Shown piece after piece: positions 1,239-53,262 of a stretch of 64,000 bases of DNA (position 1 is the stretch's first letter; every line of letters starts with the position of its first letter). The DNA is from Terriglobia bacterium (GTDB taxonomy: Bacteria > Acidobacteriota > Terriglobia > 20CM-2-55-15): positions 992,001-1,056,000 of the forward strand of contig CAXWPJ010000009.1 in the NCBI GenBank assembly GCA_963664115.2, in the 5' to 3' direction. The notes beneath the pieces were generated by a model that worked only from the letters and a program-made list of their open reading frames with translations, was not told the origin of the DNA and did not search any database. The translations under genes and the position numbers were made by a program.

Positions 1239-1585
1239 TGTAGCCTGTCAGAGCATTTCGCACGAAATACCCTAAAAAACTAAGAGACACTTTTCTAATC
1301 AGAACGATCTGAAGGAGGATCGAATGAGTGAGAAAGTGTCGGCAGAGAATCGGGTACGAGAGATTCGTCGATCGGCCCTGGTTCCGAAAGAGCGGACGCG
1401 CAAGAAGTACTCGTCTGAGGAGAAAGTGCGGATCGTGTTGGAAGGGTTGCGAGGCGAAGAGAGCATCGCAGAACTGTGCCGACGCGAAGGGATTCCGTCA
1501 AATCTGTATTACCGGTGGAGCAAGGACTTCCTGGAGGCGGGGAAGAAACGGCTGGCTGGGGACACGAAGCGGGAAGCGACATCGT
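1239..1585 (+). mobile_element. IS3-family element remnant (left end plus truncated OrfA, ORF 1324-1602)
   Basis: RTRKKYSSEEKVRIVLEGLRGEESIAELCRREGIPSNLYYRWSKDFLEAGKKRLAGD is an IS3 OrfA HTH. The element probably starts at TG 1239, where the hydrolase fragment breaks. There is no OrfB/DDE domain. Confidence 0.85.
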
Positions 1586-1763
1586 GGACCCATCGACGAT
1601 GATGCTCTTCGAGCGAACGTTCCCCTACCCGACGTTCGACCTCACTTCATTCGATATCCATCCCGACCTCGACCGATTCTTTTCTTTAGGATCGATCGTG
1701 GGTACGGGAAGGAGCAGAAAACTACGTCGCCAAGTGTCGTCTGTAATTTGGAGGGAGATCTAA
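1584..1763 (+). pseudogene. C-terminal gene fragment, possibly the propeller tail of a Ser/Thr kinase
   Basis: PSTMMLFERTFPYPTFDLTSFDIHPDLDRFF resembles the 'PxxLF...YDVxPDGxRFL' tail of kinase-PD40 proteins. Confidence 0.35.
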
Positions 1764-1805
1764 AACCGGCCCTTTTTCCGATTGGAAAAGGGCCGGTTTC
1801 GTTTT
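1763..1805. repeat. 43-bp palindromic element / bidirectional terminator, copy A
   Basis: AAACCGGCCCTTTTTCCGATTGGAAAAGGGCCGGTTTCGTTTT forms a hairpin with a T tail. It is 39/43 identical to 14774-14816. Confidence 0.8.
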
Positions 1806-1835
1806 TCTTACGGGGAAGTCGAAAGTGTCCGGAAC

Positions 1836-3965
1836 CTACCGGAAGGCCTCCGGGACGTTGAAGGTAAATATCGCGTTGTGTGTCTTGTCGGAAACCATCA
1901 CGTTCTGATTCCTGACATCGAGGGTGACGCCTCGCGCGTCCTTCAAGAGGACGTTCGGCCCGCCGATCGTCCACCGGGGCTCAGTGGGGCCGTCATCGAA
2001 GACGCTCCACACACCCACATAGTCTTCCTCCAGGAATCGCCCGCCGGGACGGACGACTCCGAAAATCATTCCGTTCTCCGGATTGCTGGTCAGCAACGAA
2101 ACTGCTGCCGCTGCATCACCGGTGATGACCCGGAGCGGAGGCGTGTTGCCCGAAGCCGTGCGATCGAAGATCTGGAGCTTGTCGCCGCCCGAGACGATCA
2201 GGAGATCGTGCACGGGGTCTATCGTCAGCCGGCCCGCAGTTAAATTCGTATCGGGTCCCTCCAGAGTCCGGAGGGGCGCCACATCGCCGTCCGCGTCCCG
2301 GTCGAAGACCAGCACCCGGCGGCCCTGGGGAACGAATATCTCCCCATGGACTGCATCTATGGCAAGAGCCTGCGGATTATGTATTTGCGTGCGGGGTCCC
2401 ATAATCTGGCGGACGGGCGCCGCGTCGCCATCCGCGCCCGCGGCGAAGGTGAGAATGGAAAGGTTATACCAACCGGGTACAAGGATCTCATCCCGCACCG
2501 GGTCGTAGGCCATGTCGTGAATCGTGCGTGTGAAATTAGTATTCTGTCCGGCAATGGACCGCGTCGCCGTTGTGCTCCCATCCGCCAGCCTGGCGAATGC
2601 CGCAATCTGCGGGTGGCCCACTCAGTTGCCGCCGAGGATTTCCTCGCGCCGAGTGTCGTACGTGATCGTGTGGACGTTTGCGAGCATGGGCCCGCGGGAG
2701 TCGGCGGGGCCGCTGCGAATCACGCGCGTTGGCGTAGGATCTCCTTCAGCGGTAATGTCATACACGGTCGCGGAGTGACTGCCCAGATTGGCGACCCACA
2801 GCTCGTCGTTGGTCAGGTCCAGCTTCACCCCGACAGGGTGGTTGATCAACGAGTTTGGACCCTGGAGGACTCGAATAGGAGCGGCGTTGCCGTCCGCATC
2901 GGCGCTGTAAACCGTTACCGTATGGCCGGTGTCATTGGCGACGAAGATCTCGCCCCGTTCCGGATGCACCGCGATATCGGTCGGCCAGTTCAGCAAGGTG
3001 TTAGGTCCCTGGATCACCTGCAAGGGTGCGACATTCCCCTGGGCATCCTTGCGGTACACAGTAATGGAGGGCGGCTCGTTCCGTCCCGAACCCGGAATGT
3101 TGGCTTCGCGCCCGACGGGCCAGTTGGCTTTTCCTTCTCCACGATTCAGGGTGGTCGGCGCGTCTGTGTCATAGTGGCGGTCCGCCACCGTACCCCAATT
3201 GGTGACAAAAATCAGGCCCGCGCTCGAGTCCACGGCGATCCCATGGGGATCGGCCAATCGCGTGGCCGATCCCTGGATCAGCCGCACGGGGGACTCTTCG
3301 TCCTCGGCCGATTTCCGAAAAACTGAGACCGCATGATCGTCCTGGACGGTCATGAAGATTTCCTGGGTCGCTTCATCGATGGACATCCGAACGGTCGTGT
3401 GCGGTGTGGCCAGTTTCCTCTTCGGCGCCACATTCCCTTGAGCGTCACGGCCCCAGACCGTCATCCAATTCAAGGTGTCGTTGTTGATGGCATAGATGTC
3501 GCCGCTTTCGGGGTCGATATAGATGCCGCAAACGTACTCCAGGAAGGTGTTCTCTCCCTGAATCACCCGTCTGGGTTCGCTGAACGCAGCAGTTGGCGGT
3601 GTATTCGTCATCCGGTCGTAGACGACGATGCTGAAATTATTTTCGTCGCCAGCGACAAGTTCACCTCGGATGGGGTCGATGTCAATGGCGGCAAACACAT
3701 GACGGGCGTCATGGATCGTACGGATGGGCGGTCTGTTCGCCACCGCCGCTCTTTCCGCCTCGCTCGGCCGGGGGGGAGGGTCCGTAGCCGCTCCTGCTTG
3801 GGCGCCTTCAACCAGCGCCATCAGACTCCCTGGAGCGCTGGCGGCCATCAGAATTGTCTGCCCGTTTCCGTCCGGCCCCAGCTGCCCGTTTTGAGGCAAC
3901 GCGCCGACAGCCACCGACAGACATAAAACCAGTGAGATCATTAAAATCCACTGCCTTGGTTTCAT
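1836..3965 (-). CDS. Secreted NHL-repeat beta-propeller protein, predicted selenoprotein (Sec at TGA 2622-2624; about 709 aa)
   Basis: ORFs 2622-3965 and 1836-2621 abut in frame (...EEILGGN-TGA-GTG GHPQIAAFARLADG). The TGA falls inside a blade repeat. The paralog at 13340 has the same TGA. A SECIS-like hairpin lies downstream. Signal peptide MKPRQWILMISLVLCLSVAVG, with a GAGGAGG RBS. Confidence 0.85.
2579..2599 (-). promoter_or_regulatory. Putative bacterial SECIS hairpin (propeller 1)
   Basis: mRNA CAUUCGCCA-GGC-UGGCGGAUG begins 22 nt after the UGA. The loop starts with G. Confidence 0.75.
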
Positions 3966-4169
3966 CTCAGTCCTCCTCTATTCCCGAGGGTTAACTTTGT
4001 GGATACTTCGTGTCGCTAACCCTATGGTCTTTCAATCTTTCCTGTCAAGCACTATGGCGTGAGGTGTATACCCTGTGCGCTCAAGGTGGCCAGGCAATCA
4101 GCGATACGCTCAATGACTGGGACAAGCTCTCCCGGCATCCTCGGGCGGAACCCGCCCCCGTCCGATCTC

Positions 4170-4330
4170 CTGGACAAAACGCGGAAGCCCAGGCCGACTT
4201 CAACCAGGGTTTTGTGATGAAGTATGGGTTTGCGAAAGACGAGGCCAAGCGATCGTTTCGCGAGGCCGTTAAACGCGATCCCAATAGCGCGATCCGTTGC
4301 TGGGGCGAAGCGTGGTCCTGGGGTTCTTAT
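4170..4330 (+). pseudogene. Fragment of a TPR-containing protein
   Basis: AQADFNQGFVMKYGFAKDEAKRSFREAVKRDPNSAIRCWGEAWSWG matches the N-terminal block of a common TPR family (AQxYFxQG...SFRxA...DP...YWGxAW). It has no credible start or continuation. Confidence 0.6.
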
Positions 4331-4342
4331 TTTGCCGGCCTT

Positions 4343-5107
4343 TTACTTGTCCGCATTTTGAAGGCGACTCAATGATTCTTTCACGCTCGGCGACTGGCCC
4401 GATGCAACATCTTCGCGCCGAAGTTCGTGGAAGTGAGTCAGAACCGTATTGGCTTCCGCCAGCACTTTGATCCGTGCGGCGTATTCCTGGATTTTGGCAC
4501 CCGGCAAGGCCCATAGAGCGAAATCGTCGGTGAGCACATCCAGATAGGCGCGCGCTCCGCAGCAACCCAGGCTCAGCGCAGCATTTCCCGTATTGATAGC
4601 CTGGGGTATCACGCCGCAGGCGGGCCGCCCCAGGGCCGGTGGGGCATTGGGCTCCACCTGCCCTACAGCTTCAGCGATCGCCAGGCTTTGCCTGGCATTG
4701 GCGAACAAGAGAACCACCGACGGTTGCAACGGAGTGGAAGCCAGAGGTGCGTAGACGACGTATTTCCCCTCTTCCTCCAGGACGGGAATCCGAGGGATGT
4801 CCTCGGGGCGAACATAGCCAAGGTCCCCGAAAACCTTCAGACTGTCGTTCAAGTCTTCCTCTGAGGACGTCGCAAGGGGCATGTGATGTGTGTACATCCC
4901 TATGCTGCAGTTCTGATGGTCTGTCGGAGAGGTGACAAACGTGGCCTCGGCTCCCTGCTGCCAAAAGACACACCCGGCTGCTACCGGTTTTGAGGGACTG
5001 GGAATTCCCTCGGGCGGCTCATCGGTCATGCAGACGGCGACGGGAGCGACCCGAAGTCCTAGCGATTCCATAATGGTCTGGGCGATGGGGGCATAGTCAC
5101 TCATCAC
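4343..5107 (-). CDS. DUF169-like domain protein
   Basis: PVAV...GCVFW...HQNCSIG...PSVVLLFANARQ...GRPACG...SLGCCGAR. This Cys pattern is typical of DUF169. GGAGA RBS. Confidence 0.75.
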   Translation of the reverse strand: MMSDYAPIAQTIMESLGLRVAPVAVCMTDEPPEGIPSPSKPVAAGCVFWQQGAEATFVTSPTDHQNCSIGMYTHHMPLATSSEEDLNDSLKVFGDLGYVRPEDIPRIPVLEEEGKYVVYAPLASTPLQPSVVLLFANARQSLAIAEAVGQVEPNAPPALGRPACGVIPQAINTGNAALSLGCCGARAYLDVLTDDFALWALPGAKIQEYAARIKVLAEANTVLTHFHELRREDVASGQSPSVKESLSRLQNADK

Positions 5108-5462
5108 GATTCTCCCTAATTCACCTCGTTAACAATGGGGCGTTTAAGACAGCAGTGTACTCATACCGCAACTCGACTCTAAAGTCCAATTGGATCGAAC
5201 GGATGAGCCGTACATTAACTTTACAAAATAACCAGACCAATGCGGATGTTATTCGAACATTCTCGATCGGTTATTTCCGATTAGACTTTGCTAATTGGGA
5301 GGCATTCTGACAGACTTACCCCGAAGGTAAAGGGACTCCGGGCTCACCACGTTTCGAGTAAACGTAAGGTGATTTTATGCGGTGGATGTCCTTGCGTTTC
5401 GGGCAAATAACCAGTGCAGTGCCGCCGGTGACGCCAGCGGGATACTTCCCAGAGAAGAACGA

Positions 5463-6356
5463 ATGCTAAGCGCAAAGCTTCTTAGTCTTAAGTCCCTGGT
5501 TTTGGTGGGGATTGTTCTCTCGCCAAACCTGTCCGCAATCGGAGCAGTCCAAGTCGACCCGTCCAGCCTCACCTGGGAAAGAGACTACGAAAAAGCTGTT
5601 GAGCGAGCCACAGCGGACGAGAAGCTGATCGTTGCCTACATGTTCACGGATTGGTGTGTGATCTGTAGGAGGATGGACAGCGAAACGTTCGTCGCGCCGC
5701 AATTGATAGAGGAGATGGCGGCGGAATATGTCTGGCTGAAGCTGAATACCGAAACTGAAGAAGACGGCAAACGTTTCCAGGAAGAGTTCGCAATACTAAC
5801 CTATCCCACGATTTTGCTCCTGGACAGTCAGGGCGAGGAAATCGAGCGAGTCAGCCGCTTCGTTCCTGCTGCCGAATTCCGGGAAACTGTTGAGTTTTTC
5901 GTTGAGAGCCCGGATTCTCTTGGGAGCCTGAGAGCAGCAGTCGAGGAGCAGCCCGATTCCGTTTCAGCGCAATTCGCTCTGGCCGAAAAATATCTCAACC
6001 AGAACAACTACCCTAAGGCCGCCGCCCGATATGAGAAGGTGATCGAGCTCGATCCTGAAAACCTTGAAGGCCATACCGATGAGAGCCTCTACAATGTCGC
6101 GCTCTCCCTCGCCAGCCAGGAAAGATTTGAAGAGGCGCTCGCCCAGTTGGATCTTCTTGAGAGTCGCTTTCCGATGAGCGGCAACCTTGGGGAGACGGCC
6201 GTCGTGCTAAGGGTACAGGTTCTCCACTGTTGTGGAAGAATGGATGAGGCGGAGGCCCTTTTACAACAGCAACGCAATGCGAACGCCGAACCGGCTCCTG
6301 TTGGGGAGGTCGAAAACCTGTTCTCCGAAATGGAAGCCGAAATCAGCGGCAATTAG
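5463..6356 (+). CDS. Exported thioredoxin-fold protein with TPR repeats
   Basis: Signal-like N-terminus, FTDWCVICRRMD (CxxC), cis-Pro motif YPTILLLD, and a TPR C-terminus (AQFALAEKY...YEKVIELDP). Confidence 0.85.
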   Translation: MLSAKLLSLKSLVLVGIVLSPNLSAIGAVQVDPSSLTWERDYEKAVERATADEKLIVAYMFTDWCVICRRMDSETFVAPQLIEEMAAEYVWLKLNTETEEDGKRFQEEFAILTYPTILLLDSQGEEIERVSRFVPAAEFRETVEFFVESPDSLGSLRAAVEEQPDSVSAQFALAEKYLNQNNYPKAAARYEKVIELDPENLEGHTDESLYNVALSLASQERFEEALAQLDLLESRFPMSGNLGETAVVLRVQVLHCCGRMDEAEALLQQQRNANAEPAPVGEVENLFSEMEAEISGN

Positions 6357-6527
6357 ACCACCTGCCACGACTATCTTCTGTAACACCATCTGTTGAAAAG
6401 CCCCTCTGTGACAGGGAATAGTAACGCGTCCTTCGGCCGGAATAAAACAGCTTGGATTCAGTTAGTTGTAAGTTTAATATCGACTTGCATTGGCGTGTCT
6501 GTTTGACTTGGAGAAGCAGGCGATCAA

Positions 6528-7151
6528 ATGGCTCGGAAAAAATACGGCAAACAATTCGCTAAGATGTTTGCGGCGATAGCGCTGCTGACCGTGACCGTCA
6601 TCGGGCTCGGTTATGGCTCGCTGCTTCGCGCTATGGATCAAGCTGGGGAAGACTATGGCCGGGGCGATGTGGAGGCTGCGCTGACCCGTTACGAGAGCAT
6701 CGAGGGTCGGCTGCGTTCCCTGGGCGCTCTGCGCATGATACCGGCGAAAGACCGCGGGAATCTTATTCTGAACCAGGCACGCCTGCTCTATGCCCTCGGT
6801 CGCTATGAGGATGCCCAGGTAGCCATGGATCGGGAGACTGAAATCGCCGGTGTCGCCAACAACGATTGCCGATTCCTTCTGTTGAACGGCGACATTGCAT
6901 TCCGGAGAGCCGTCAGGAATTACCGCGAATCGTCGGAGGGGGATGCGGGGTTGCTGGACGACGCCCTGCGCACTGCCGAAACTTATCTGCGTGATTCCCT
7001 GCGCCTCTGCCCGAATGACTGGGACGCCAAATACAATTTTGAGTTCATGCGGCTGAATCGGGCTCGGCCGGCACAGATCCCACTTTTGATGATGGGCGGT
7101 GATAACCAGGATCCGCCGCCGACAACCCTTCCGGCGGAACTGTCACCTTGA
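6528..7151 (+). CDS. MxaK-like TPR membrane-anchored protein
   Basis: N-terminal TM helix, TPR-like helices, and SLRLCPNDWDAKYNFE (compare MxaK/BatC ALRxxPxxWDAxYNLE). First gene of the MoxR-VWA operon. Confidence 0.65.
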   Translation: MARKKYGKQFAKMFAAIALLTVTVIGLGYGSLLRAMDQAGEDYGRGDVEAALTRYESIEGRLRSLGALRMIPAKDRGNLILNQARLLYALGRYEDAQVAMDRETEIAGVANNDCRFLLLNGDIAFRRAVRNYRESSEGDAGLLDDALRTAETYLRDSLRLCPNDWDAKYNFEFMRLNRARPAQIPLLMMGGDNQDPPPTTLPAELSP

Positions 7152-7185
7152 TTTCGGCGCCTCGATCACTCAGCGATAATCTCTG

Positions 7186-8202
7186 ATGGAATTTGCAAGA
7201 CAAGAATACTTCTGGCTGTTGCTGCCGGTTCCCTTTGTAGTTCTGCTCTGGGGAATCGGTGTATGGCACCTGCGGCGGATGCGGATCCGATTCGGAAATA
7301 TCGGAAACCTCGCGTCCATCTCAAGAATCTCCTGGTCAGGCAGAGAGTGGTTCCGAGGTCTGCTGTTTGTGGGCGCTCTGGGGCTGATGGTCGTGGCCCT
7401 GGCTGAGCCCAGCGCAGTTGTTCGGGAGTTGCACGCCGTTCCGACACCCACGGATCTGGTGTTCTTGTTGGATACCTCCCCCTCCATGTACGGACGCGAC
7501 ATGGATCCCAACCGGCTGGGTCGTGCTGAACGAATCATTGAGAGATTCCTCTTTCTGAAGCAGCCCGAGGATCGTTATGGCTTGATCTCGTTCAACTGGA
7601 CGAGCGTGGTGTTGTCCTACCTGACCCGCGATCCCCAAAGCATCTTGCTGTACTTCGATTATCTCAATCAGCTGAATGTGCCACAGCCGGGCACCAATGT
7701 GGGCGCCGTGCTGACCAACGCGATGCAGCTGGTTGCCACCGAACGGACCCTCGATCCGGAAAGCGCCCAGAATCGCCGCGTCGTTTTCGTCCTCCTTTCG
7801 GACGGAGACGATACGGCGGACGAGATCGAGGAGCCTCTGGCCGAGGTAGTTCGATCTGGGATTAATATCTATTCCATCGGTCTGGGTACGGCGAACGGCT
7901 CGAACGTGCCGATGGAGATGGCGGGGGGGTTGAACGGCCGGCCGGTAAGGTACTACCAGCGCTACGACGGGGTCCGGCTGATCAGTCAAGCGCAGGCCAG
8001 AACCATGAGAGAGGTCTCCGACCGGACGGGCGGACGGTTCGTGCGCGGTGAGCTGGAAGAGCAGGTGGATCAACTCATGGAGGAAATCCTGGTCGACAGC
8101 CGGCCTGTGTCCGGTTTCGAATCGAGCGCTGTGCGCCGAGACCTCTATGTTTATTTTCTGATGGCCGCTTTGGGATGCCTGTTGGTCGGCGTCTTTTTAT
8201 AA
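7186..8202 (+). CDS. VWA-domain membrane protein (MxaL/BatB-like)
   Basis: Two N-terminal TMs, MIDAS DTSPSM, GTN, LLSDGD, and a C-terminal TM. Confidence 0.85.
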   Translation: MEFARQEYFWLLLPVPFVVLLWGIGVWHLRRMRIRFGNIGNLASISRISWSGREWFRGLLFVGALGLMVVALAEPSAVVRELHAVPTPTDLVFLLDTSPSMYGRDMDPNRLGRAERIIERFLFLKQPEDRYGLISFNWTSVVLSYLTRDPQSILLYFDYLNQLNVPQPGTNVGAVLTNAMQLVATERTLDPESAQNRRVVFVLLSDGDDTADEIEEPLAEVVRSGINIYSIGLGTANGSNVPMEMAGGLNGRPVRYYQRYDGVRLISQAQARTMREVSDRTGGRFVRGELEEQVDQLMEEILVDSRPVSGFESSAVRRDLYVYFLMAALGCLLVGVFL

Positions 8203-8222
8203 CCGGCCTGGAGCCCTTGAGG

Positions 8223-9248
8223 ATGGAATCGTTGACCGAACACGTGGAAACGAAAGAGCAGGCATGGGAGGTCATCGCCAGAATCGAAGAGCAGATCCGC
8301 AAGGTGATTATCGGACAGGACGATTTGATCCGGCGCATCCTGATCGGGCTGTTCGGGCGCATTTCCTACTCGTTCAAGAAGGGGCAGGACGAAAAAACAG
8401 GTTCGGGTCACATTTTGTTGGAAGGCGTGCCCGGACTCGCGAAAACGCTGCTTGTCTCGGCCATTGCCAGCACGATTGACGCCAAGTTCCAGCGCATTCA
8501 GTTCACGCCGGATATGCTGCCCGCCGATATTCTTGGAACCAAAATCTTCGATAGCAAGGTCGGCGAATTCCGTACTGAAACAGGTCCGATCTTTGCCAAC
8601 ATTATTCTGGCGGATGAAATCAACCGCGCCCCGCAGAAGACGCAGAGCGCTCTGTTGGAAGCCATGCAGGAGCGCCAGGTCACGATCGGCGAGACTACAT
8701 ACGCGTTGGATGATCCTTTCTGGGTCCTGGCGACTCAGAACCCCGTGGAGCAGGAAGGCGTGTTCTCACTGCCCGAAGCACAGCTGGATCGATTTTGCAT
8801 GATGGTTCGTGTGCATTACCCGTCCCCGGAAAGCGAATACGACATGCTCTCAGCGAGTCTCGAAAAAACGGGCCTGGAATCGGTGACCGGCCCCAAAGCA
8901 GTTCTCGCGATCCGGCAATTAGTCGGTCAGGTGCACGTGGACGAAAAGATTCGCCGGTATATCGTTGCCATCGGCCAGAACACGCGCAGTAACGGCACGA
9001 ACACACTGCCGATTGTGGAGGAGATGGTCATGCACGGCGTATCGCCGCGCTCTTACAATCACCTGCTGGCGATGTGTCGTGCCGTAGCTTTTTTCCGCCG
9101 GCGCGATTACGTTCTCCCTTCGGATGTGAAGTACATTGCGCCCGATGTGCTGCACCACAGAATCGTGCGCACGATCCGGGCAGAAGTCGAAAACGTGGAA
9201 TCCGACGAGATCGTCGCCGAGGTGTTGCGACATACTCCGATTCCTTAA
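8223..9248 (+). CDS. moxR: MoxR-family AAA+ ATPase (MxaR-like)
   Basis: HILLEGVPGLAKT (Walker A), RIQFTPDMLPAD, ILADEINRAPQKTQSALLEAMQE, ATQNPVEQEG, LPEAQLDRF. Confidence 0.95.
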   Translation: MESLTEHVETKEQAWEVIARIEEQIRKVIIGQDDLIRRILIGLFGRISYSFKKGQDEKTGSGHILLEGVPGLAKTLLVSAIASTIDAKFQRIQFTPDMLPADILGTKIFDSKVGEFRTETGPIFANIILADEINRAPQKTQSALLEAMQERQVTIGETTYALDDPFWVLATQNPVEQEGVFSLPEAQLDRFCMMVRVHYPSPESEYDMLSASLEKTGLESVTGPKAVLAIRQLVGQVHVDEKIRRYIVAIGQNTRSNGTNTLPIVEEMVMHGVSPRSYNHLLAMCRAVAFFRRRDYVLPSDVKYIAPDVLHHRIVRTIRAEVENVESDEIVAEVLRHTPIP

Positions 9249-9256
9249 GAGGTCCT

Positions 9257-10150
9257 ATGGCGCTGGCGCCGGAATTAGTAGAAGAGCTTCGATATGTGGA
9301 AATCAGCGTGGCGCGGCGCATTCGCAGCCTGCGCTTCGGCCAGAATCGCAGCCCATTAAAGGGCTCTGGCTACGAATTCGAGGCCCACAGCAAGTACCAG
9401 GTTGGCGAAGATTTTCGGCGCATCGACTGGAACGTTACAGCGCGCATGCAGGAAGTCTTCATCAAGCGCCATTTTGAGGAACGGGAGGTCTCGGTATTTC
9501 TGGTGGCGGATGTATCCCGCTCAATGCGTTTCTCAACGGCGAAACATTCCAAGAACCTGCGACTGATGCAGGTGGGCGCCACTCTCGGTTTTTCTGCTGT
9601 CAGCGACAGCTGCAACTTTGGCTGGCTGGCGTTCAGTGATCAGGTGGAAGCCTACGAGCCCCCTCGCAAGGGTCGCGCACATGTGTGGCGGGCGATTGAT
9701 AGACTTCACAACCTGAAGCCGAAGCACTCGGGAACCAATTGGGAGCTTGCGTTGCGTTTTCTGCGTAGCCACCTGCGGGGCATGTCCATTGTGTTTCTGC
9801 TCTCGGATTTCATTACAGACCCGGATGCGACCCAGCTGAGGGAACTGCCAGATCTTAAGGTCCTGGCGCAAAAACACGACGTGGTTCCCATCGTGTTCGT
9901 CGATCAACTGGAAAAAACCCTTCCTACAGGCAAAGGGCTGCTCCGCTTTCGTTCGGCCGAGGGCCGCGATGAAATATTGCTCAGCCTTTCCTCGCGTCAG
10001 AGGCGCGCGTTCGACGCCTTGGTGGAGAAACGTAAAGCGGATCTACGGGATCTGTTTTACTCCTTGGGAATGGAGTGCCTGTTTTTGAACGTGGGCGAAG
10101 CGTTCACCGATTCCCTGATGATGCTATTTCAAAGGCGGAAGAAAATATGA
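9257..10150 (+). CDS. DUF58-domain protein (MxaS-like)
   Basis: GSGYEF...YQVGEDFRRIDWNVTAR...FEEERE...DVSRSM, LLSDF. Directly follows moxR. Confidence 0.9.
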   Translation: MALAPELVEELRYVEISVARRIRSLRFGQNRSPLKGSGYEFEAHSKYQVGEDFRRIDWNVTARMQEVFIKRHFEEREVSVFLVADVSRSMRFSTAKHSKNLRLMQVGATLGFSAVSDSCNFGWLAFSDQVEAYEPPRKGRAHVWRAIDRLHNLKPKHSGTNWELALRFLRSHLRGMSIVFLLSDFITDPDATQLRELPDLKVLAQKHDVVPIVFVDQLEKTLPTGKGLLRFRSAEGRDEILLSLSSRQRRAFDALVEKRKADLRDLFYSLGMECLFLNVGEAFTDSLMMLFQRRKKI

Positions 10151-11115
10151 AGGCGACTTTGCTGTGCATAGCCCTGGGCTTCGCGAACCAGGTGGCCTGG
10201 GCTCAGACAGTGACGACCGATGCCGTTACGGACTCTTCGGATCTGCGGTTCACTGTTCATTTGGATAGAACAGCCGTCTGGCCCGGCGATCAGTTCCACT
10301 ATCTCATCATTGTCGACTACTCCTCTGATTACGAATTCGTTCTCGACAACCTGAGCCAAGAGAGCATTAACATGGACCCCTTTGAGGTCATAGACGTCGG
10401 AACGAATCTGGTTGTTAATAGCACAGGCCGGAGATTGTTCGTGGATCTGACACTGGCCAACTTCGAAACCCTGCAGGGCAGAATGGACATTCCACAGTTC
10501 ACCCTGTTTTATTTCCGTACAGAGAACAATACCGTCGGTGTGGATCAGGCGGCTGCCGAAAGCCTGACGATTCCCGGACCCGCCATCGGAATTCGTAGCA
10601 CGTTGGAGCCGAATCCCGACGACATCCGCGATGCAGTTACGGTGATCGGGTGGGACCGCAGTCGCTGGGTGTTTCCCGCCCTCGGCTGGATTTGTGGTGC
10701 GGTTTTGGTCTTGGGTTCGGGGCGGGAGCTGGTGTTGTTTGTCCAGCGAAGAAAAGCGCGCAAAGGTCCGGATCGCCGCAAAGCGATGAAAGCCGTCCGC
10801 GACCGGTGGACGAGCGGCGTGCCTTCAGAGTTCACGGATCCGGAGACCTGCTCGGCTTTTCTCGACCATTCCTACCAGAACCTGAAGGAGTACGTCGGGC
10901 ATTACCTGGAGACTCCCACCATGGGACTGACCTCTGAGGAGATGCGCGAGGAAATGCGACGTCAGGGTGCAAGCACGGACCTGTCCGAGAAAGTTGCTAA
11001 AGTGCTGGAGGCTTGTGAGACAACCCGCTACGCGCGCAACGGTGTGTCGGAACGCGGGGAAGCGGCGCGTGTCGTGGCCGACGGCATGCGCGAAATTCTG
11101 AGCCCCAAGGGATAG
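10147..11115 (+). CDS. Exported/membrane accessory protein (MxaA/BatD-like)
   Basis: ATGA overlap with the DUF58 stop. Signal peptide, beta-rich domain, TM helix and helical tail (YLE...GLTSEE...CETTRYA). Sits at the MxaA position in the operon. Confidence 0.6.
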   Translation: MKATLLCIALGFANQVAWAQTVTTDAVTDSSDLRFTVHLDRTAVWPGDQFHYLIIVDYSSDYEFVLDNLSQESINMDPFEVIDVGTNLVVNSTGRRLFVDLTLANFETLQGRMDIPQFTLFYFRTENNTVGVDQAAAESLTIPGPAIGIRSTLEPNPDDIRDAVTVIGWDRSRWVFPALGWICGAVLVLGSGRELVLFVQRRKARKGPDRRKAMKAVRDRWTSGVPSEFTDPETCSAFLDHSYQNLKEYVGHYLETPTMGLTSEEMREEMRRQGASTDLSEKVAKVLEACETTRYARNGVSERGEAARVVADGMREILSPKG

Positions 11116-11122
11116 TCAACGA

Positions 11123-12055
11123 ATGACGTTTCTGTATCTCCAGTGGCTTTATTTAGCGGTGCCGCTACTGCTGATCGCGTTGGGCCTGCGCTTCTGGAGA
11201 CGGCACTATTGGGGACACTCCCTCGTGTCCCAGATGCGGGAAGAGATCGGTGGTCCGAATCCCATTCTGCGCATGCCTGCCATCCTGGAGGGAGCGGCGG
11301 TGGCATTGCTGCTCACCGCGCTGCTGGGTCCCATCTACCCCTTTGTCGTGAACCGCGTCGAACGCGGTGGGCTGCAGATCCTGATCGTGCTCGACCTCTC
11401 CCAGAGCATGGAAATACCGCTGGGAGACCGGTCGAGAATGGAAGTCATCAAGGCGAGCGCAACCGAATTCATCGACCGCCGACCGGGTGATGCCGTTGGC
11501 CTCGTGGTGTTTTCTCATAACGGATATCTGGTCACACCCGCCACCTTCGATCACGAAAGCCTGCTTTCGTATCTACAGCGGGTCAGCCCGCAGACACTCG
11601 CGCACGAGGGATACACGGCTATCGGCGAGGGTCTTGCCGCCGCCCAGGAGTTTTTTCTCTTCAGCAGAGAACGCGGCGGCCGCGGTAAAGGCGAGGTCAT
11701 TGTCTTGTTCAGCGACGGGGAAAGCAATTGGGGCAGGGACCCCTTGCAGGAAGTGGAAAGAGCGCGCCAGGACGGCGTCCGTATCTACTTTATCGGCGTT
11801 GCACTGCAAGAGGAGGCCGCAGGGCGGATCGCCGCCGCAGTCCCGTCCACGGGCGGAAAGTTTTTCGATGCTCAGATCCCCGGGCACATCGTGGAGGCTC
11901 TCGAAGAGATCAACACGACGGAGCAGGGCCGCTTCTCTACGCTCCAGTTAAGACGGGAACAACCCGCCTACTTTGTTTTTGTCCTCCTGGCGTTCGCGGC
12001 CCTCGCGCTGCGGATGATACTCCATGGTATCCCGCATTTCGTGGAGATCAGTTAA
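11123..12055 (+). CDS. VWA-domain membrane protein (MxaC/BatA-like)
   Basis: N-terminal TMs, MIDAS DLSQSM, FIDRRPGDAVGLVVFS, TAIGEGL, LFSDGESN, C-terminal TM. Confidence 0.88.
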   Translation: MTFLYLQWLYLAVPLLLIALGLRFWRRHYWGHSLVSQMREEIGGPNPILRMPAILEGAAVALLLTALLGPIYPFVVNRVERGGLQILIVLDLSQSMEIPLGDRSRMEVIKASATEFIDRRPGDAVGLVVFSHNGYLVTPATFDHESLLSYLQRVSPQTLAHEGYTAIGEGLAAAQEFFLFSRERGGRGKGEVIVLFSDGESNWGRDPLQEVERARQDGVRIYFIGVALQEEAAGRIAAAVPSTGGKFFDAQIPGHIVEALEEINTTEQGRFSTLQLRREQPAYFVFVLLAFAALALRMILHGIPHFVEIS

Positions 12056-12061
12056 CCGCTT

Positions 12062-12447
12062 TTAGAACAATTCGGGCACGCGGAACGTCAGAACCGAATT
12101 GAGCCTCTTGTCACTGACGATGATGCTCTGGTTCTTCACGTCCAGCGCCACTCCACGTGGCATCTCGAGAACGCCATCGGGTCCACCGATCGTCCACAAC
12201 GGCGGGCCATCGCTGCTCGCTTCATAGCTCCACACACCCAAACAGGAAACAGGATCCGCCAGAGTCTCCCCGACCGGTCGGTTCGTCGCGAAAATGAGTT
12301 TCTTCGGCGGATAGATCGCGAACGGTCCGCCCAGACTGCGGGGGCCTTGGATCGTCATTATCGGGTCGACCTTGCCATTGGCAAGGCGATCATAAAGCAG
12401 GAAAGTGGTCGCGGTCCTGCCCCCGCCCCCACCTCCGGAGGCTGGGG
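12062..12447 (-). pseudogene. 3' remnant of a third beta-propeller paralog
   Basis: ...FLLYDRLANGKVDPIMTIQGP...LGVWSY...PPLWTIGGP...PRGVALD...SDKRLNSVLTFRVPELF* aligns with the last blades of both propellers. An in-frame TAA lies just upstream and the 5' part is missing. Confidence 0.8.
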
Positions 12448-12502
12448 CTTAGCCTGTCCTTCGTGGTCAGAAGATCTCCCGCGGTCAGAAGATTACTTCG
12501 GA

Positions 12503-14569
12503 TCAGAAGATCTCTGGAACCGAAAACACCAGAATGCCGTTCAAGCGCATATCGGAAATAATCACTTCCTGGTCTTCAGGGTTCAATACCACTCCAAAGG
12601 GTTTCTTCAGCGTTGTCGTCGGTCCCGCCGGGAGCTTCCAAAGCGGCGGAATGTCCCCGTTATCTTCGTAGCTCCATACGCCTAAAAAGGCGCCCTCCGG
12701 TTCCATGTGATCTCGAATCCCGGGCATCGCCGCGACGATCAGCTTCCTCTGTGGATAGACCTGCATCTGGTTGATCCGTACAATCCCCGAATTCGGACCG
12801 CGGATTACGGCCCGCGGCTTTACGTTTCCTTCGTCCGTCCGGTTAAACACCAGGAGCGCGCCCCGCTGGGCGTCTGGTGACCGAGAACTACCGAAGGAGC
12901 TGTTTAAGCCGACTACCAGAATGTCGTTGATCGGATCCACGGAAACCACATTAACGGATTCCAAGCCGGTGTCGGGACCCTCGATGATTCGAAGGGGCGC
13001 AACGTCACCGTTGGCTTCGCGCGGATATACCTTAATACTGTTGCCGCTGTAGGTGAAAATCTCGTCGTGAATGGGGTCCACATCCAAGCGGCTGCCTATC
13101 GTTCCGGTCCGGGGGCCCTGTATGATTCGAATGGGTGCTTCCTGTCCATCGGCGCCTCCGCGGAACGTCAGGATCGCCTCTGCAAACGGGTTGGGCACAA
13201 GAAATTCATCGTTGATTTCATCGTAGCGGATGTCGTGCATGGTTCGCGACAGCTTGCTCGCCTGCCCGAAAACGGCCCGTTCGGGTTGCTGTGCTCCGTC
13301 CGCCAGCCTGGCGAACGCCGCAATTTGCGGATGGGCCACTCAGTTGGGCACCAGAATTTGATCCCGTAAGGTGTCGTATCCGACAGCCCCCGGGTTGCCG
13401 ATGTTGAGCGACAGTCTATCCGCCGGTCCAGATCGAATCGTGCGCGATGGGCTAACATCCCCGTTGGCCGTCACCGGGTACACCGTCACCGAGGCATTTC
13501 CCATGTTCGCAACATAGAGTTCGTCGTTGGTGGGATCGACCGTGATTCCGGGCGGATGTTTGATTCCGGTGTTCGGCCCCTTGATGACGCGGATCGGAGC
13601 CACATCACCCTTGTCTGACATCCGAAAAACCAGGACAGAGTCGTCAGCGTCATTCGCAAGGAACAATTCCTGCCGCTCCTCGTGCAAGGCCAGATGCGAA
13701 GGCCAATTCATCAATGTCTGGGGTCCTTCGATGATCCAGAGAGGCTCCGTATTTTCCGACGCCTCCAGGGGATACACGGTGATTGATGGAGACTCGAACT
13801 TCCCCCATTCCCGTGGGCGCGTACCGGCTGGAGAACCGGGCGGTGGCGCCACGGTCTCCCGACCGTTTCCGTAATTGCTCACGAACACCAGGTTGTTACT
13901 CGCATCGATCGCGATCCCGTGGGGATCTTCCAGCTGCGTGTCGTTCCCACGCAACACGCGAAGCGGTTCCTCTTCACCCTCCGCACCCTTCCGATAAACA
14001 TAGACCGCGTTCTGGTGCTGCACCATCAGGAACATCTCCTGTCTCTCTTCGTGCATGGCGATCCCGAAGGTTCCGTGGGGTGTGGCCAGCACCCGCGTCG
14101 GTGTCGCGTTACCCCGGGCGTCGGGAGAAAAAACAGGCAGCCAGTCCTGCGTGTCGTTGTTGACGACGTAAATCTCGCTGGTGACCGGGTCGATATAGAC
14201 CCCGCACATCATCTCCGCAAACGTGTCCGGCCCGGAAATAACCCGTCTCGGCTCCGTGAAAAGTGCCGACGCGGGAGTGTCGGAGCGACTGTCGAACTCC
14301 AGGATCTGAAACAAGTTCTCATCGGTGACGACGAGCATGTTGTTATCCGGATTCACCGCCACCGCGCTTAATGAAGGGTAGGGATCCTTAATAAACCGAA
14401 GCGGGGCCCGTTCGATCAACACGGTCTCTCGATCTCCTCCGCCCTGCGCGTATGCGACCTCTGAAATCTTCCAACTTCCAACCACGATTGCATCCGCTAG
14501 CGACACGATCAAGCCGAGGCAAATCGTCGATAGCAGCCAGATCCTCCAGTTATGACCACCTTGATTCAT
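12503..14569 (-). CDS. Secreted NHL-repeat beta-propeller protein, predicted selenoprotein (Sec at TGA 13340-13342; about 688 aa)
   Basis: ORFs 13340-14689 and 12503-13339 abut in frame (...DQILVPN-TGA-GTG AHPQIAAFARLADG). Start ATG 14569 follows AAGGAGG. Signal peptide present. Paralog of 1836-3965. Confidence 0.85.
13297..13317 (-). promoter_or_regulatory. Putative bacterial SECIS hairpin (propeller 2)
   Basis: mRNA CGUUCGCCA-GGC-UGGCGGACG, 22 nt after the UGA. The A-U pair of copy 1 is replaced by G-C. Confidence 0.75.
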
Positions 14570-14773
14570 TACGGAACCTCCTTCACATTCGACTAAATTC
14601 GACCCACGTCTCCCTGCAGGCCGTGATTCATCGCAAGACCGATAATAACGACCAAACAGCGGGGATGCCCGGAAAATCGTTGAAATCATATCGATGTTCT
14701 TTGCTTAAGCCTTTCTTTTGGGACGACGGGGGAAACAATGTCACGAAGCGGCATCCTGCGTCAGAAACTGCTG

Positions 14774-14816
14774 AAACCGGCCCTTCCTCCGATTGGAGAA
14801 GGGCCGGTTCCGTTTT
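14774..14816. repeat. 43-bp palindromic element / terminator, copy B
   Basis: AAACCGGCCCTTCCTCCGATTGGAGAAGGGCCGGTTCCGTTTT, a direct repeat of 1763-1805. Confidence 0.8.
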
Positions 14817-14890
14817 AAACGACGGCAAACCGAAAGTGTCTCTTAGTTGTTCAGAGGAGTTGGATCAAACCCCTAACCATCGATTTCAAG

Positions 14891-17137
14891 CTATCTAAAG
14901 ACCTCCACCTGGCGGGAGTACTTGACGATGAGATTGCGATTGATGGGACCCAGCCCGTGCAGTCCCTGGATCTCGTTATAGACGACGTACAATCCGGTGC
15001 CGGCGGTGCTCAGCCAGCCAAAGCGGAAGTTTCCGCTCCAGGTACTTGCCCGGTCGTTGTACTGGACCAACGACTGAAAGTTGATCCGTGGTGAGAGGCT
15101 GTAGTTGAGACGAGCCTGCAGCAAGTTGGTTACGAAGTCGCCTTGCGGGAGCTTGACATCGCTGCGCCGCCAGCTGAAGGATGTATTGATCGTGGCCCCG
15201 GCCCGGGCGTTCGCACCCACCGAGAACGTGCGCTCGCTTCCGGTATAAAAGCCACCGACAACCGAAGACCAATCCAGAGACAGCACCTGGCTCCGGTCTG
15301 TACGCAATCGAAAGTCGAGCTGCGGATGTCGGTACTGGCCTGGAGGTATGACCACTCCGGGAGAAATCTCGAACGGTTCATGAAGCCCTTCCATATTAAT
15401 GTTCACGATCGGGCCCAAAAACCAGCCGTTTTCGAAATCGATGCTGGGATCCAGATGGATCTGTTGGGTTTCCATAAAGCCTTCGAAATCCCAATACGTC
15501 CGGATTTGGGCATGGGGCCGAATTTCTCGAAGCCACCCCAGGTTCGGGAAGCGAATGTTCTTCCCTCCCGCGAGGTCAAAAAACCGGTAGTTCTTGCGTG
15601 TCAGGAATCCGACCTCGGGATTGAAGTCATCTCCGACCTGTGAAAATTCGGAACGCAGGTATCCACCCCTCTGCTGGTACTGAGCCCGGACGTCGTAGGC
15701 GGACTCCGGACCCGTTCGACCGGGTGTTTCCGTGCGCGCTATGAACCCGTTGATATCCGTGTATTGGCCGATGCCGAGTTTAGCGTCGACGCCCCAGGTC
15801 CGGTTCCAGTTGTCGGGGATCGAACCCGCCGCCTCACGATTGACAAAAATGCCGCCAAGGCTGGAGCGGTTCGGAAGCTCCCTGCTCACACGCGCTACGG
15901 TGAAGTTGTTCTTGGCTGTGACAAAAGGAACGTCGTCAGTCTCCATGTTGAGCAACCCGACGTTAAACTGCCCCACCTTTCCGCTCAAACGGGCACCTCC
16001 AATGATGGGTACAGCGGCCCCGGAGGGATCGAGACCGATACGGCGGCTGAAAAACAGATCAATGCCGGATTTTCCTGCCGCGAACAAACCGGCATTCTCA
16101 AGGAAAAACGAGCGTTTCTCTGGAAAACGGACACTGAACCGGGTCAGGTTGATCACCTGCTCGTCCACCTCGACCTGCGCGAAATCCGTGTTGTAGGTCA
16201 CATCCAGATTCAGGCTCGGCGTGACACCGAACTTGGCGTCGAAACCGATGTCGCCGTCATAATCCGACTCAGTTTCCGCGGTGTTTGCGAAGTTTCGTGA
16301 GGCTGTGCCGGTCACATAGGGTGTTACGTTGAAATTGCGTGGGGTCTCCAGTTCCAGTCCCTGCAGTTCTCCGGCCGACGACAGTCGATACAGGTTGTAG
16401 ATGCGCTCGATCGGAGCCCAGAAAACCTCTTCGTTCTTCCGCCGAATATTGCGTTGAAAGTTCACACCCCAGGTCTGGGGTCGGTCACCGTAGCGCAGGC
16501 TTCTCAAAGGGATTTCGAACTCGGCCGTCCAGCCCGATTCGTTGACTTCGGTACGCACCGTCCAACTGGTGTCCCAGTTCAGGTTAAAACCGGAACCCGA
16601 GGTCACGGCGGCCCGGCCCTGGACCGCGCGCGTACCCTCGCCTTCGTTGCTGACCTGGCCGTCAAATTCGATCCCCGCGGGATTCGTGCCAAAGACGAAG
16701 CCGTTCTGCCGATCGTGGTAGGTGTCGAAGATGACTTGAAAGGAATCGGTGTCGTTCATTCCCGAATCCCGCCTGCTGTCGGTCACCCGAATCAGCCCCG
16801 GTTCGCTGTCATAGCAGATCACACTGATAAAGATGGCGCGACTGTTGTACAGAATCCGAACGACGGTCTCTTCGGATGCGGGGGTGCCTTCGACCGGCTC
16901 GGTCTGCACAAACCCGGTAATCGGTGTGGCGAGTTCCCAAACTGCGTCGTCGACAATGCCGTCGATCACCGGAGGTGTCTCGACGAAAGTCGCGCTGGCG
17001 ATCGGCACGGGTCCCTGTGCCGCCCCGGGAGTAGTCGCGAGGAGAACGGCCATTATGGCGACGATCGCGCCAAACATCGTCCGCAAGTTGAACTCCTTAA
17101 CGTGTTGTCCGCTGGGGTTGGGGGCCTGCCCAAGCAA
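14891..17137 (-). CDS. DUF5916 / CBM9-like domain outer-membrane protein (paralog 1)
   Basis: PVIDGIVDDAVW...FVQTEP...DSFQVIFDTYHDRQNGFVFGTNPAG...WTAEFEIP...WGVNFQR...NTDFAQVEVD...NLTRF...FPEKRSFFLE...FFSRRIG. Start codon uncertain. Confidence 0.85.
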   Translation of the reverse strand: MLGQAPNPSGQHVKEFNLRTMFGAIVAIMAVLLATTPGAAQGPVPIASATFVETPPVIDGIVDDAVWELATPITGFVQTEPVEGTPASEETVVRILYNSRAIFISVICYDSEPGLIRVTDSRRDSGMNDTDSFQVIFDTYHDRQNGFVFGTNPAGIEFDGQVSNEGEGTRAVQGRAAVTSGSGFNLNWDTSWTVRTEVNESGWTAEFEIPLRSLRYGDRPQTWGVNFQRNIRRKNEEVFWAPIERIYNLYRLSSAGELQGLELETPRNFNVTPYVTGTASRNFANTAETESDYDGDIGFDAKFGVTPSLNLDVTYNTDFAQVEVDEQVINLTRFSVRFPEKRSFFLENAGLFAAGKSGIDLFFSRRIGLDPSGAAVPIIGGARLSGKVGQFNVGLLNMETDDVPFVTAKNNFTVARVSRELPNRSSLGGIFVNREAAGSIPDNWNRTWGVDAKLGIGQYTDINGFIARTETPGRTGPESAYDVRAQYQQRGGYLRSEFSQVGDDFNPEVGFLTRKNYRFFDLAGGKNIRFPNLGWLREIRPHAQIRTYWDFEGFMETQQIHLDPSIDFENGWFLGPIVNINMEGLHEPFEISPGVVIPPGQYRHPQLDFRLRTDRSQVLSLDWSSVVGGFYTGSERTFSVGANARAGATINTSFSWRRSDVKLPQGDFVTNLLQARLNYSLSPRINFQSLVQYNDRASTWSGNFRFGWLSTAGTGLYVVYNEIQGLHGLGPINRNLIVKYSRQVEVFR

Positions 17138-51697: not shown

Positions 51698-51803
51698 TGG
51701 ACTTGATTGAAAGGTGGGTGGCTTCGTTCTCAAGCGGAGCCACTCTTAGGCTGTCGTAAACCGTCAGACAATGGGTAATCTTTTTGGAGCGAGGAGAGAA
51801 ATA

Positions 51804-53258
51804 ATGGGACGAATAGGGGACTTGAGCCGTCGAGACATGTTGAAATTATTTGGTGTGAGCGTGGCGGGGTCGCTCGCCGGAGTCACATACCCAACCCAGC
51901 TTCGCGCACAAAGTTCCCGGGTGACCCCTTTAGGGACGGCGCGCAACTGTATCGTGATTCAGAACAACGGCGCACCGAGTCCGCCGGAGTTCTTAGACTT
52001 TAAGGAAACCAAATATACGGCGAACGATCTGGATCCCCAGGTCGTCGCTGGAAATTCGGATTTCATTCTGTCGAAGACACTCCTTCCGAGAATGGACGTG
52101 TGGGCGCCGCATGCTGCCGTGGTTCGAGGAATGAAGGGCGTCGCGCTGGTACACTTTCCGGCGCAATACCACGTACAGGCAGGCCGCGCGTTCAATCCCG
52201 CTCTTGTCAGGGAGATTCCGGCATTGGGCAGCGTCATCGCCAGGGACCTCGAGCCCCAGCGCCGGGAGTCGGATACATTCCCCACCTATATCAGCTTCGA
52301 TCTGGACATCGCTCGCTGCCCGCCCATCGGAACCGGGATGTTGCCGCCAAAATATGCCGGCCTCGATCTGACCACGGGCACGATCCTGGAAACCTTCGGC
52401 GGCGGGGGTGAGAACACCGACAAATCGGAGGTGTTGTCCCAACGCTACGAGACTCTGGGCCGGATGTTAGAAGTGTCATCGATGGGAAATGACGCTTTAG
52501 GCTCCAAGGCCGGAGAGTACGTGGCGTCCTACGATTCGGCAATCCAGCTCCTGATGGATCCGCGGTTTCAGCAAGTATTGGATGTGACCGATGAGGAAAA
52601 GCAGCGTTATGGCGTGGATGCGAATCGCGCCCGGTCGAACTTTGGTTTGGGCATGCTGCTGGCCCGGAATGTGCTGAAAGCCGACGCCGGCTCTCGATTC
52701 TTATGGGTCTGCAACTCCACCAACGGCGGAAACGGTCAATTCGACAACCATGACGTTCTCTACGACCGGGAAGCATCTTTGACCGGTGGCCGTGTATCCG
52801 TATACCAAAGCCTCCCCAGGTTTGATATGGCGCTGGCGAGCCTGGTTGAAGATTTGATCGCCATGCCTGGGCACGAGGCCGGAAAGACGGCGTTTGATGA
52901 AACCCTGATCGTCGTGGTCACCGAGTTCGGGCGCACGCCGGACATGAATCCCCATGGCGGCCGCGATCACTATATTGAGACCTACCCGATGATGTTATTG
53001 GGCGGAGGCGTCAAGGGCGGACGGGTTCTGGGCAAGACGGACGAAACGGGCGGCAAGGTGATCGACACGGGCTGGAATTTCAGAGAACAGACCATGATGG
53101 ATCACATGACGTCAACCATCCATTCGGCCCTGGGCACCGATTACAGCAGCGTCATCGAAGACACGCCTTCCGGACGCGCCTATGAGTATCAACAGACCGC
53201 TCCACTCGGTGGACCTTCGTTTATCCCGCTGAGCGGATTCGAGGATCTATTCATCTAA
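51804..53258 (+). CDS. DUF1501 family protein (Tat-exported)
   Basis: SRRDMLK, GAPS, DFKE, PALGSVI, FDNH, ETLIVVVTEFGRTP, GRDH, GGGVKGGRVLGKTD. Confidence 0.88.
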   Translation: MGRIGDLSRRDMLKLFGVSVAGSLAGVTYPTQLRAQSSRVTPLGTARNCIVIQNNGAPSPPEFLDFKETKYTANDLDPQVVAGNSDFILSKTLLPRMDVWAPHAAVVRGMKGVALVHFPAQYHVQAGRAFNPALVREIPALGSVIARDLEPQRRESDTFPTYISFDLDIARCPPIGTGMLPPKYAGLDLTTGTILETFGGGGENTDKSEVLSQRYETLGRMLEVSSMGNDALGSKAGEYVASYDSAIQLLMDPRFQQVLDVTDEEKQRYGVDANRARSNFGLGMLLARNVLKADAGSRFLWVCNSTNGGNGQFDNHDVLYDREASLTGGRVSVYQSLPRFDMALASLVEDLIAMPGHEAGKTAFDETLIVVVTEFGRTPDMNPHGGRDHYIETYPMMLLGGGVKGGRVLGKTDETGGKVIDTGWNFREQTMMDHMTSTIHSALGTDYSSVIEDTPSGRAYEYQQTAPLGGPSFIPLSGFEDLFI

Positions 53259-53262
53259 GACT

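Follow-up and report, generated by a model that had tools for sequence, protein, structure and literature searches.

Predicted selenocysteine in a multi-copy family of putative exported double β-propeller proteins from an acidobacterium

Bacterial selenoproteins of the Escherichia coli fdhF type carry their decoding signal inside the gene: an in-frame UGA is followed by a hairpin, the selenocysteine (Sec) insertion sequence (SECIS), and is decoded with the help of SelA, SelB, SelC and SelD; homologues have cysteine at this place. The bacterial consensus (bSECIS), as given in PMC13188914, is a hairpin whose short apical loop opens with G, 16–37 nucleotides (nt) downstream of the UGA. Here we describe genes of the same general design, two of which (paralogs A and B) lie in a 64,000-nt stretch of DNA, ‘the window’ (Terriglobia bacterium, assembly GCA_963664115.2, contig CAXWPJ010000009.1, positions 992,001–1,056,000). 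They differ from known bacterial selenoproteins in what they are predicted to encode—no thioredoxin fold, no CxxU or UxxC motif but N-U-V-x-H-P, as a first-pass annotation of the window had remarked, and Sec in the blade of a β-propeller—and also in number, with 13 paralogs in the window's genome (G000; 4.9 Mb, 97% complete) and at least 26 TGA places in that of a relative (G001).

Two other systems invite comparison. The NHL propellers of TRIM2/3/71, Brat and Thin, and that of peptidyl-alpha-hydroxyglycine alpha-amidating lyase (PAL; PDB 3fvz), resemble the predicted fold of the new proteins, which score above the cut-off for NHL. PAL holds a metal and an active-site Arg within its propeller cavity (PMC10303134), and an invariant Arg is likewise predicted at the top face of the family's propeller. 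The family differs in having two propellers per chain, and identities are only 13–22%; in PAL a Tyr/Arg dyad works with Zn and there is no Sec, and the TRIM domains are binding modules. PAL is the nearest working analogy, then, rather than a family to which these proteins belong. In methylotrophs, methanol dehydrogenase, itself a propeller enzyme, receives its Ca only if MoxR, VWA proteins and their partners are all present (PMC12276312), and a cassette of comparable make-up lies between A and B.

The in-frame UGA and its decoding

Paralogs A and B occupy the minus strand, and all codons quoted for the window are those of that strand. The features that bear on decoding are these:

1836..3965, minus strand: paralog A, one gene if its TGA is Sec; 709 amino acids (aa), hydrophobic leader, two predicted six-bladed propellers
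2622..2624, minus strand: in-frame TGA of paralog A, codon 448 of 709, predicted Sec448 in N-U-V-G-H-P
2579..2599, minus strand: SECIS-like hairpin of paralog A, CAUUCGCCA-GGC-UGGCGGAUG, loop 31 nt past the UGA, within the coding sequence
2517..2528, minus strand: codons R480-T-I-H483 of paralog A, invariant Arg and His, start of blade 8
12503..14569, minus strand: paralog B, 688 aa, predicted Sec410
13340..13342, minus strand: in-frame TGA of paralog B, codon 410 of 688
13297..13317, minus strand: SECIS-like hairpin of paralog B, CGUUCGCCA-GGC-UGGCGGACG

The codon strings from which the first-pass annotation had argued for Sec read-through are present as quoted: GGC AAC TGA GTG GGC CAC CCG in A (TGA at 2624-2622) and CCC AAC TGA GTG GCC CAT CCG in B (TGA at 13342-13340). 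Read through, the two proteins are 44% identical. The UGA is conserved in both, as had been claimed, but the family numbers 13 full-length members in this genome, not two. Each of the 13 has TGA at this column as its sole internal stop, and in all of them the open frame continues for some 260–280 codons. TGA ends 546 of the genome's 1134 long open reading frames (ORFs), more than any other stop, and so is an ordinary stop codon elsewhere, as the annotation had held.

When the genome's own sites are combined with loci from relatives and from other fetched genomes, 140 distinct sites result. At the column in question, 127 have TGA, 12 have TGC, one has TGT and none has TAA or TAG: the alternative to TGA is always Cys. 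Two independent nonsense mutations at one codon had been thought unlikely, and its recurrence in 13 of 13 paralogs and at 127 sites bears this out. Remnants of insertion sequences (IS), and one partial paralog, do lie nearby, which might suggest that A and B are pseudogenes or that the TGA is a sequencing artefact. The same codon appears in many assemblies, however, the frame beyond it stays open in every paralog, and four public runs list no other letter at 2622-2624; the conservation data refute this explanation, and its probability is vanishingly small. One contig from an RNA library (run X5, 2524-2808) spans the TGA with four differences, the three listed ones outside the codon; it establishes presence, rather than a level of transcription or read-through. 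Run matches of small word share were set aside.

Homologous proteins tell a similar story. Among 120 listed of 3478, 31 span the column at full length with Cys and one does so with Trp; in 87 the chain stops immediately short of it, with PN or LN, and one ends otherwise. Among the best 150 cluster representatives, 25 stop at the column, 12 cross it with Cys, six begin right after it, and 107 do not fit, being fragments or more distant repeat proteins. Four divergent full-length representatives, read by eye, also have Cys. Databases store the truncated, 447-residue form, and keep the two halves as separate proteins. Named records that bear the family include Vicinamibacterales, Solibacteraceae, Binatia, Gemmatimonadaceae, Nitrospira and Planctomycetota bins. 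Its distribution is patchy: 13 of 41 genomes (40 relatives plus G000) have a match, strong in 11, and all but one of the matches listed have one TGA, whereas an even sample of the phylum, in which only four candidates were scored per genome, gave a single positive in 220. That positive, G150, has one member (L165, G150:C1:1087485-1089696). Both UGA and hairpin are retained there, but the match is scored in two parts, which suggests that the frame is broken, or interrupted by an insertion, ahead of the Sec codon.

Sec and Cys forms coexist in four genomes (G041, G042, G043, G045). On an unrooted FastTree of 100 members, built with the Sec and SECIS columns removed, the Sec/Cys label requires 14 changes, 12 of them forced by well-supported branches, and Cys tips are dispersed among the Sec groups. 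Repeated replacement of Sec by Cys is the simplest reading of this tree.

The Sec machinery, which the first-pass annotation had suggested looking for, is in place. G000 has selA, selB and selD above cut-offs together with tRNA-Sec, and its SelD gene has an in-frame TGA of its own. Among ten family-positive relatives, selA was matched in nine (in one of them in pieces), and selB was found in the remaining genome, which is 81% complete; selA or selB was detected in every TGA-bearing genome tested. The annotation had named two results that would refute Sec, namely homologues with TAA or TAG or separate genes and never Cys, and a genome without the machinery; neither was obtained. G044 (2.1 Mb), where neither was found, has a single gene, in Cys form.

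Downstream of the UGA, the hairpin with its G-G-N loop conforms to expectation. Of the 127 TGA sites, 119 fit the bSECIS model of PMC13188914, compared with one of the 13 that have Cys and 49 among 964 TGA codons that serve as ordinary stops. Codon choice is constrained as well: Ala at +10 is coded GCC in 123 of 123 TGA sites and Arg at +11 is coded AGG in 125 of 126, but neither codon occurs in any of ten Cys sites. Over the genome as a whole AGG makes up 7.5% of Arg codons, and in the rest of the paralogs 11.9%. When 129 conserved four- and six-fold columns were ranked by codon constraint across 77 Sec genes, the top six all fell within 449-461 (93–100% one codon; next 75%, median 50%), and the stem pair +27/+39 occurs among 102 variants as C-G 89 times and as U-A 12 times. 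An Rfam scan of 1500-15000 returned two chance matches under the gathering score, and no SECIS family.

The paralogs are also recovered by a scan of the genome that made no use of the family. It looked for TGA codons flanked by coding signal and accompanied by a hairpin; its 51 candidates include eight of the 13 paralogs and eight recognisable selenoprotein types: two AhpC/TSA, three deiodinase-like, and one each of OsmC, rhodanese and DUF3179. Three further candidates were tested, and no family was assigned to them. The hairpins of these other candidates, and that of SelD, have short G-led loops similar to the family's. The eight known-type genes have their in-frame TGAs at C9:74840(-), C2:701068(+), C12:268903(-), C5:131175(-), C2:768686(+), C2:786105(+), C10:288080(-) and C2:360043(+) of G000 (loci L167-L173 and L175), and most have leaders. 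A propeller paralog immediately precedes the DUF3179 gene, and an EF-hand tail is present in one of the deiodinase-like proteins.

Three observations weigh against decoding as Sec. Single 55-nt hairpin segments are not unusually stable when compared with shuffles (z about −1.5); the loop lies 31 nt from the UGA, rather than the 17–26 nt found in SelD and the genome's other candidates; and the codon after TGA is GTG in 115 of the 127 TGA sites and in seven of the 13 Cys sites. The last leaves room for a re-initiated C-terminal product. It could be, in other words, that these are pairs of genes joined by translational coupling (TGA GTG), the exported N-terminal part assembling with the C-terminal part into a heterodimer, and the separate database entries for the halves are what such an arrangement would give. 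We consider this very improbable. None of the 140 sites has TAA or TAG, and homologues that are fused have Cys, with the one Trp excepted. GTC or GTA, which are not start codons, follows TGA in 11 sites, and CTG in one. Pairing with the anti-Shine–Dalgarno sequence reaches −6 kcal/mol or below in two of 127 sites; in A and B it amounts to −5.0 and −5.2 kcal/mol, whereas their true starts reach −11.8 and −13.3. The N-terminus is hydrophobic in 13 of 13 paralogs (1.9–3.0 in a 13-residue Kyte–Doolittle window), whereas the first 60 residues past the TGA score 1.1–1.8 in 12, and 2.1 in one. The first-pass annotation had credited the downstream ORF with neither ribosome-binding site nor signal peptide; the duplex there is indeed weak, and most paralogs have no hydrophobic leader at that point. 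The break, furthermore, falls inside a blade, and the hairpin is lost in Cys forms. No terminator-like site was found at the TGA; there is one below the final stop.

Alternatively, UGA might be read as Cys or Trp, or be subject to some other programmed read-through that produces short and long forms. The Trp-bearing database protein (P0010) and the unusual spacing of the hairpin speak for this, but TGA is the commonest stop of the genome, the complete Sec machinery accompanies it, and the hairpin matches the bacterial SECIS model. P0010 itself is likely the product of translating TGA with table 4. Such decoding seems to us extremely improbable.

Because homologues have Cys, the hairpin is conserved, and the genome has selA, selB, selD and tRNA-Sec, the TGA is very likely Sec; we predict with near certainty that it is decoded in this way. 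The UGA, hairpin, Cys homologues and Sec machinery can be read directly from the sequence and supply the first step of a proposed mechanism. In the second, by the standard bacterial pathway, SelB with its tRNA-Sec would almost certainly bind the hairpin and insert Sec.

Predicted fold and putative site

Modeled as one chain, the protein forms 12 blades (predicted local distance difference test, pLDDT, 87.6; predicted template-modeling score, pTM, 0.86). Residues 86-406 superimpose on six-bladed NHL domains (Z 29 for the NHL domain of TRIM3, root-mean-square deviation 2.2; Z 26.1 for PAL), and Pfam NHL (PF01436) matches at 45.6 and 43.9 bits (cut-off 20). From the list of strands, strand 82-85 appears to complete blade 12. 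The UGA had been said to split a repeat unit, and in the model it does: Sec448 follows strand 2 of blade 7 and lies between strands 2 and 3. We thus expect, with good confidence, export by the N-terminal leader, folding into two six-bladed propellers, and Sec in the strand 2–3 loop of blade 7.

Across 100 non-redundant members, column 448 is Cys or Sec in 99, Arg480 and His483 are invariant (100 each, and both present in the four divergent representatives as well), Asn430 is found in 97 and His451 in 91. His483 takes the P-H-G blade-start position that is His in NHL propellers and PAL, too, and conserved His or Cys residues recur at blade starts (C146, H189, H241, H483). Propeller geometry would bring the strand 2–3 loop of blade 7 next to the linker that leads into blade 8, both on the top face; Sec448, Arg480 and His483 therefore likely form one site. 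The first propeller has residues of its own: Asp163 in 100 members, His241 in 97, Cys146 in 81 and His189 in 77.

What this site might do is a matter for more caution. We lean, somewhat, toward a working site of a periplasmic enzyme made up of Sec, Arg480, His483 and His451, with the selenolate as nucleophile or metal ligand; the substrates may be small molecules imported by neighbouring receptors of the TonB-dependent type, the paralogs differing in substrate. Genes for such receptors (outer-membrane, with carboxypeptidase-regulatory and β-barrel domains) lie within 3 kb of seven of the 13 paralogs, compared with 3.8% of random windows, and in the loci of 16 of 32 genomes. Several things count against an enzyme. 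The clustering of the three residues is read from blade geometry in a model; in the first propeller, some members lack Cys146, His189 or His241 (present in 81, 77 and 97%); there is no close solved enzyme relative, the best PDB sequence having E 3e-6 among eight weak matches; and the top structural hits, TRIM NHL domains, are not catalytic. Foldseek, given the whole model or the second propeller alone, returned generic WD40, YncE and NHL propellers and named no enzyme, which is no evidence against a relation. Clusters in the ESM Atlas, 273–504 aa long and thus halves, were labeled hypothetical, NHL or lactonase, and gave no functional name.

Sec might instead be inserted into a non-catalytic protein that partners the receptors in a binding or scaffold role; Sec would then bind a metal or ligand, or act as a redox switch. 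The binding-type NHL domains among the top matches, the strong linkage to receptor genes, the many paralogs per genome, and the occurrence of related repeats in long surface proteins would all suit a scaffold; an invariant Cys/Sec, Arg and His on the same propeller face looks like an active site, instead, and most characterised bacterial selenoproteins use Sec catalytically, according to PMC13188914. A scaffold is a possibility, though we do not favour it. Overall, the best explanation, and a highly probable one, is an exported double β-propeller that contains Sec, likely at a catalytic or metal-binding site shared with the invariant Arg and His.

YncE and 6-phosphogluconolactonase, the names that truncated halves carry in databases, share β-propeller repeats with the family, which matches Pfam Lactonase weakly. 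As assignments they fail: NCBIfam models score 13–33 bits against cut-offs of 370–400, and the family is double, six-bladed and equipped with a Sec/Cys site, rather than single and seven-bladed.

Place among catalogued selenoproteins

The first-pass annotation had placed NHL-repeat selenoproteins in bacterial surveys. The papers and supplements we searched did not confirm this. Table 1 of PMC13188914 (2026, 119 families), in the text accessible, lists no family of propeller, NHL or lactonase type. NCBIfam 20.0 offers no model for the family, and none of its selenoprotein hidden Markov models matches at E 0.1. No NHL, propeller or lactonase selenoprotein appears in the main texts of PMC13326102, PMC12013277, PMC1976440, PMC9312934 and PMC2398784, nor, save as sequence strings, is there mention of one in the supplements of PMC13326102, PMC12013277 and PMC5029168. 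Subscription papers, bioRxiv supplements, figures, BSepDB and RefSeq were outside the scope of this search, and absence from print is therefore not proven. By every computational criterion, this is a real selenoprotein gene family, and it is new, as a family and in the fold predicted to bear Sec, relative to the catalogues checked. The recoding mechanism itself is already known; it is the protein family, the host fold and the scale that these catalogues lack.

Most predicted bacterial selenoproteins are small thiol-redox proteins. A predicted exported propeller of some 700 residues without CxxU points, therefore, to a different selenium chemistry. The 13 copies compare with nine other recognised selenoprotein candidates in G000 (an incomplete count), which changes estimates of selenium use in Acidobacteriota. 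Many database entries, cut at the UGA and labeled YncE or lactonase, are corrected by reading it as Sec. And the natural Cys paralogs of the same genomes, which have arisen at least 12 times on the tree, provide ready-made Sec/Cys pairs and should be simple to express.

The MoxR-VWA cassette and other neighbours

Between paralogs A and B lie genes of another kind, and around them some lesser features:

6528..12055, plus strand: six-gene cassette of TPR protein, VWA protein, MoxR AAA+ ATPase, DUF58, DUF4381-like membrane protein and VWA protein; present once in the genome; a putative maturation system
5382..6356, plus strand: thioredoxin-like (WCVIC) and TPR protein, first gene ahead of the cassette
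4343-5107, minus strand: DUF169 (Cys-rich) gene
12062..12440, minus strand: remnant of another paralog, immediately following paralog B; it comprises the final blades without the Sec region, and within 12062-12500 short direct repeats (agaagatct...) precede it
1763..1799, strand not assigned: 16-bp inverted repeat, terminator-like, 37 nt beyond the last stop codon of paralog A

The cassette, a single operon, resembles the MxaRSACKL genes in content—a MoxR AAA+ ATPase, DUF58, two membrane VWA proteins, TPR, and one more membrane protein—and in adjoining the gene for an exported propeller. It differs in order, which is K-L-R-S-A-C-like rather than R-S-A-C-K-L, and in that its neighbour is not a pyrroloquinoline quinone (PQQ) enzyme. 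Such names as MxaA-like and MxaK-like describe architecture only; the TPR and DUF4381-like proteins have no NCBIfam match. Operons that we take to be of the Bat type, also with MoxR, offer another comparison. Ternary conflict systems of MoxR, vWA and β-propeller have reportedly been described, and the MoxR of the cassette matches AAA_3 at 216 bits and bpMoxR at 40 bits.

Two of the cassette genes were each found in the same eight of 41 genomes, all among the 11 positive for the family, and in none of the 30 others, including G003 of the same genus. The nominal p is 2e-6 by genome and 3e-4 by genus, and is overstated because kin genomes are not independent. In G000, G002, G041, G042 and at locus L097 the cassette lies inside or beside propeller clusters, and in G010, G019 and G045 it is on short contigs. 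From this linkage and co-occurrence, and the parallel with Ca insertion into methanol dehydrogenase, we propose tentatively that the cassette loads metal into the Sec propellers, much as MxaRSACKL does for that enzyme; if so, it would be a testable lead to the cofactor.

Beyond the relatedness of the genomes, other points tell against a metal loader. In G001, G004, G030 and G038 the cassette is unlinked within the 20-kb stretch fetched; its genes occur in one of 73 family loci; five family-positive genomes (G005, G015, G024, G043, G044) gave no match with these queries; and G231 (L161, G231:C87) has the six-gene subtype without the Sec-propeller family. In the sample of 220 genomes, the cassette profile matched 11; of the five inspected, three were generic MoxR operons, one was the specific subtype without the family, and one, G150, has the family and three cassette genes. 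The cassette may, instead, serve other exported propellers or enzymes, and share with the family no more than a lifestyle and genomic islands. We give this an even chance. The unlinked copies, the five genomes lacking a match, and G231, where the protein next door is unrelated and exported, are in its favour. It accounts less well for the lack of the cassette in all 30 family-negative relatives, for its position inside propeller clusters in five genomes, distant ones among them (DUF4381-like gene 23–25% identical), and for its indifference to PQQ dehydrogenases. In G231 the adjoining protein is of the Tat-exported type, and may be another client.

Two other partners were considered and rejected. 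DUF6152 is present in 21 of 41 genomes, a profile not shared with the cassette. PQQ dehydrogenases, examined in five genomes, are abundant (8–35 matches) in G003, G006 and G016, which have no cassette, and absent from G030, which has one.

In its fullest form, the proposal would be a class of exported selenoenzymes: double propellers with a Sec/Arg/His metal site and a dedicated MoxR-VWA loader, numbering 13 to 26 or more in each genome, a single family that would account for most of the selenoproteome in these Acidobacteriota and act on the cargo of the outer-membrane receptors. As a whole, this seems unlikely.

The DUF169 and thioredoxin–TPR genes stay with the cassette in G001, G002 and G004, of the same genus; DUF169 also flanks propellers in G043, and thioredoxin–TPR does so in three further genomes. 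They are possible partners in reduction or metal handling. A small exported protein with a CxxC motif of heavy-metal-binding type (G000 C9:981642-982127) adjoins a propeller paralog, and similar genes stand beside propellers in two other genomes. Across 32 genomes, the other neighbours include amidohydrolases (6 and 5), NMT1-type binding proteins (6) and DUF6152 (5), and further ones are metallo-beta-lactamase folds and Mo enzymes. DUF6152 is hugely expanded in G000, with 91 scored matches among 134 candidates, and DUF5916/CBM9 proteins occupy 23 loci there.

Long palindromes, nearly identical, bracket the whole locus at 1763-1799 and 14774-14812, the second between paralog B and a DUF5916 gene. 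Outside these lie what we take to be a HigA-like antitoxin (187-570), a fragment of a Ser/Thr kinase gene (820-1182) and a remnant of an IS3-type transposase (1324-1602). A four-gene block, presumably encoding a large exported protein and DUF1501-like, formylglycine-generating-enzyme-like and NTF2-like proteins, is present twice, at 49847-54761 of the window and at G000 C9:974971-980029, with a receptor gene near each copy.

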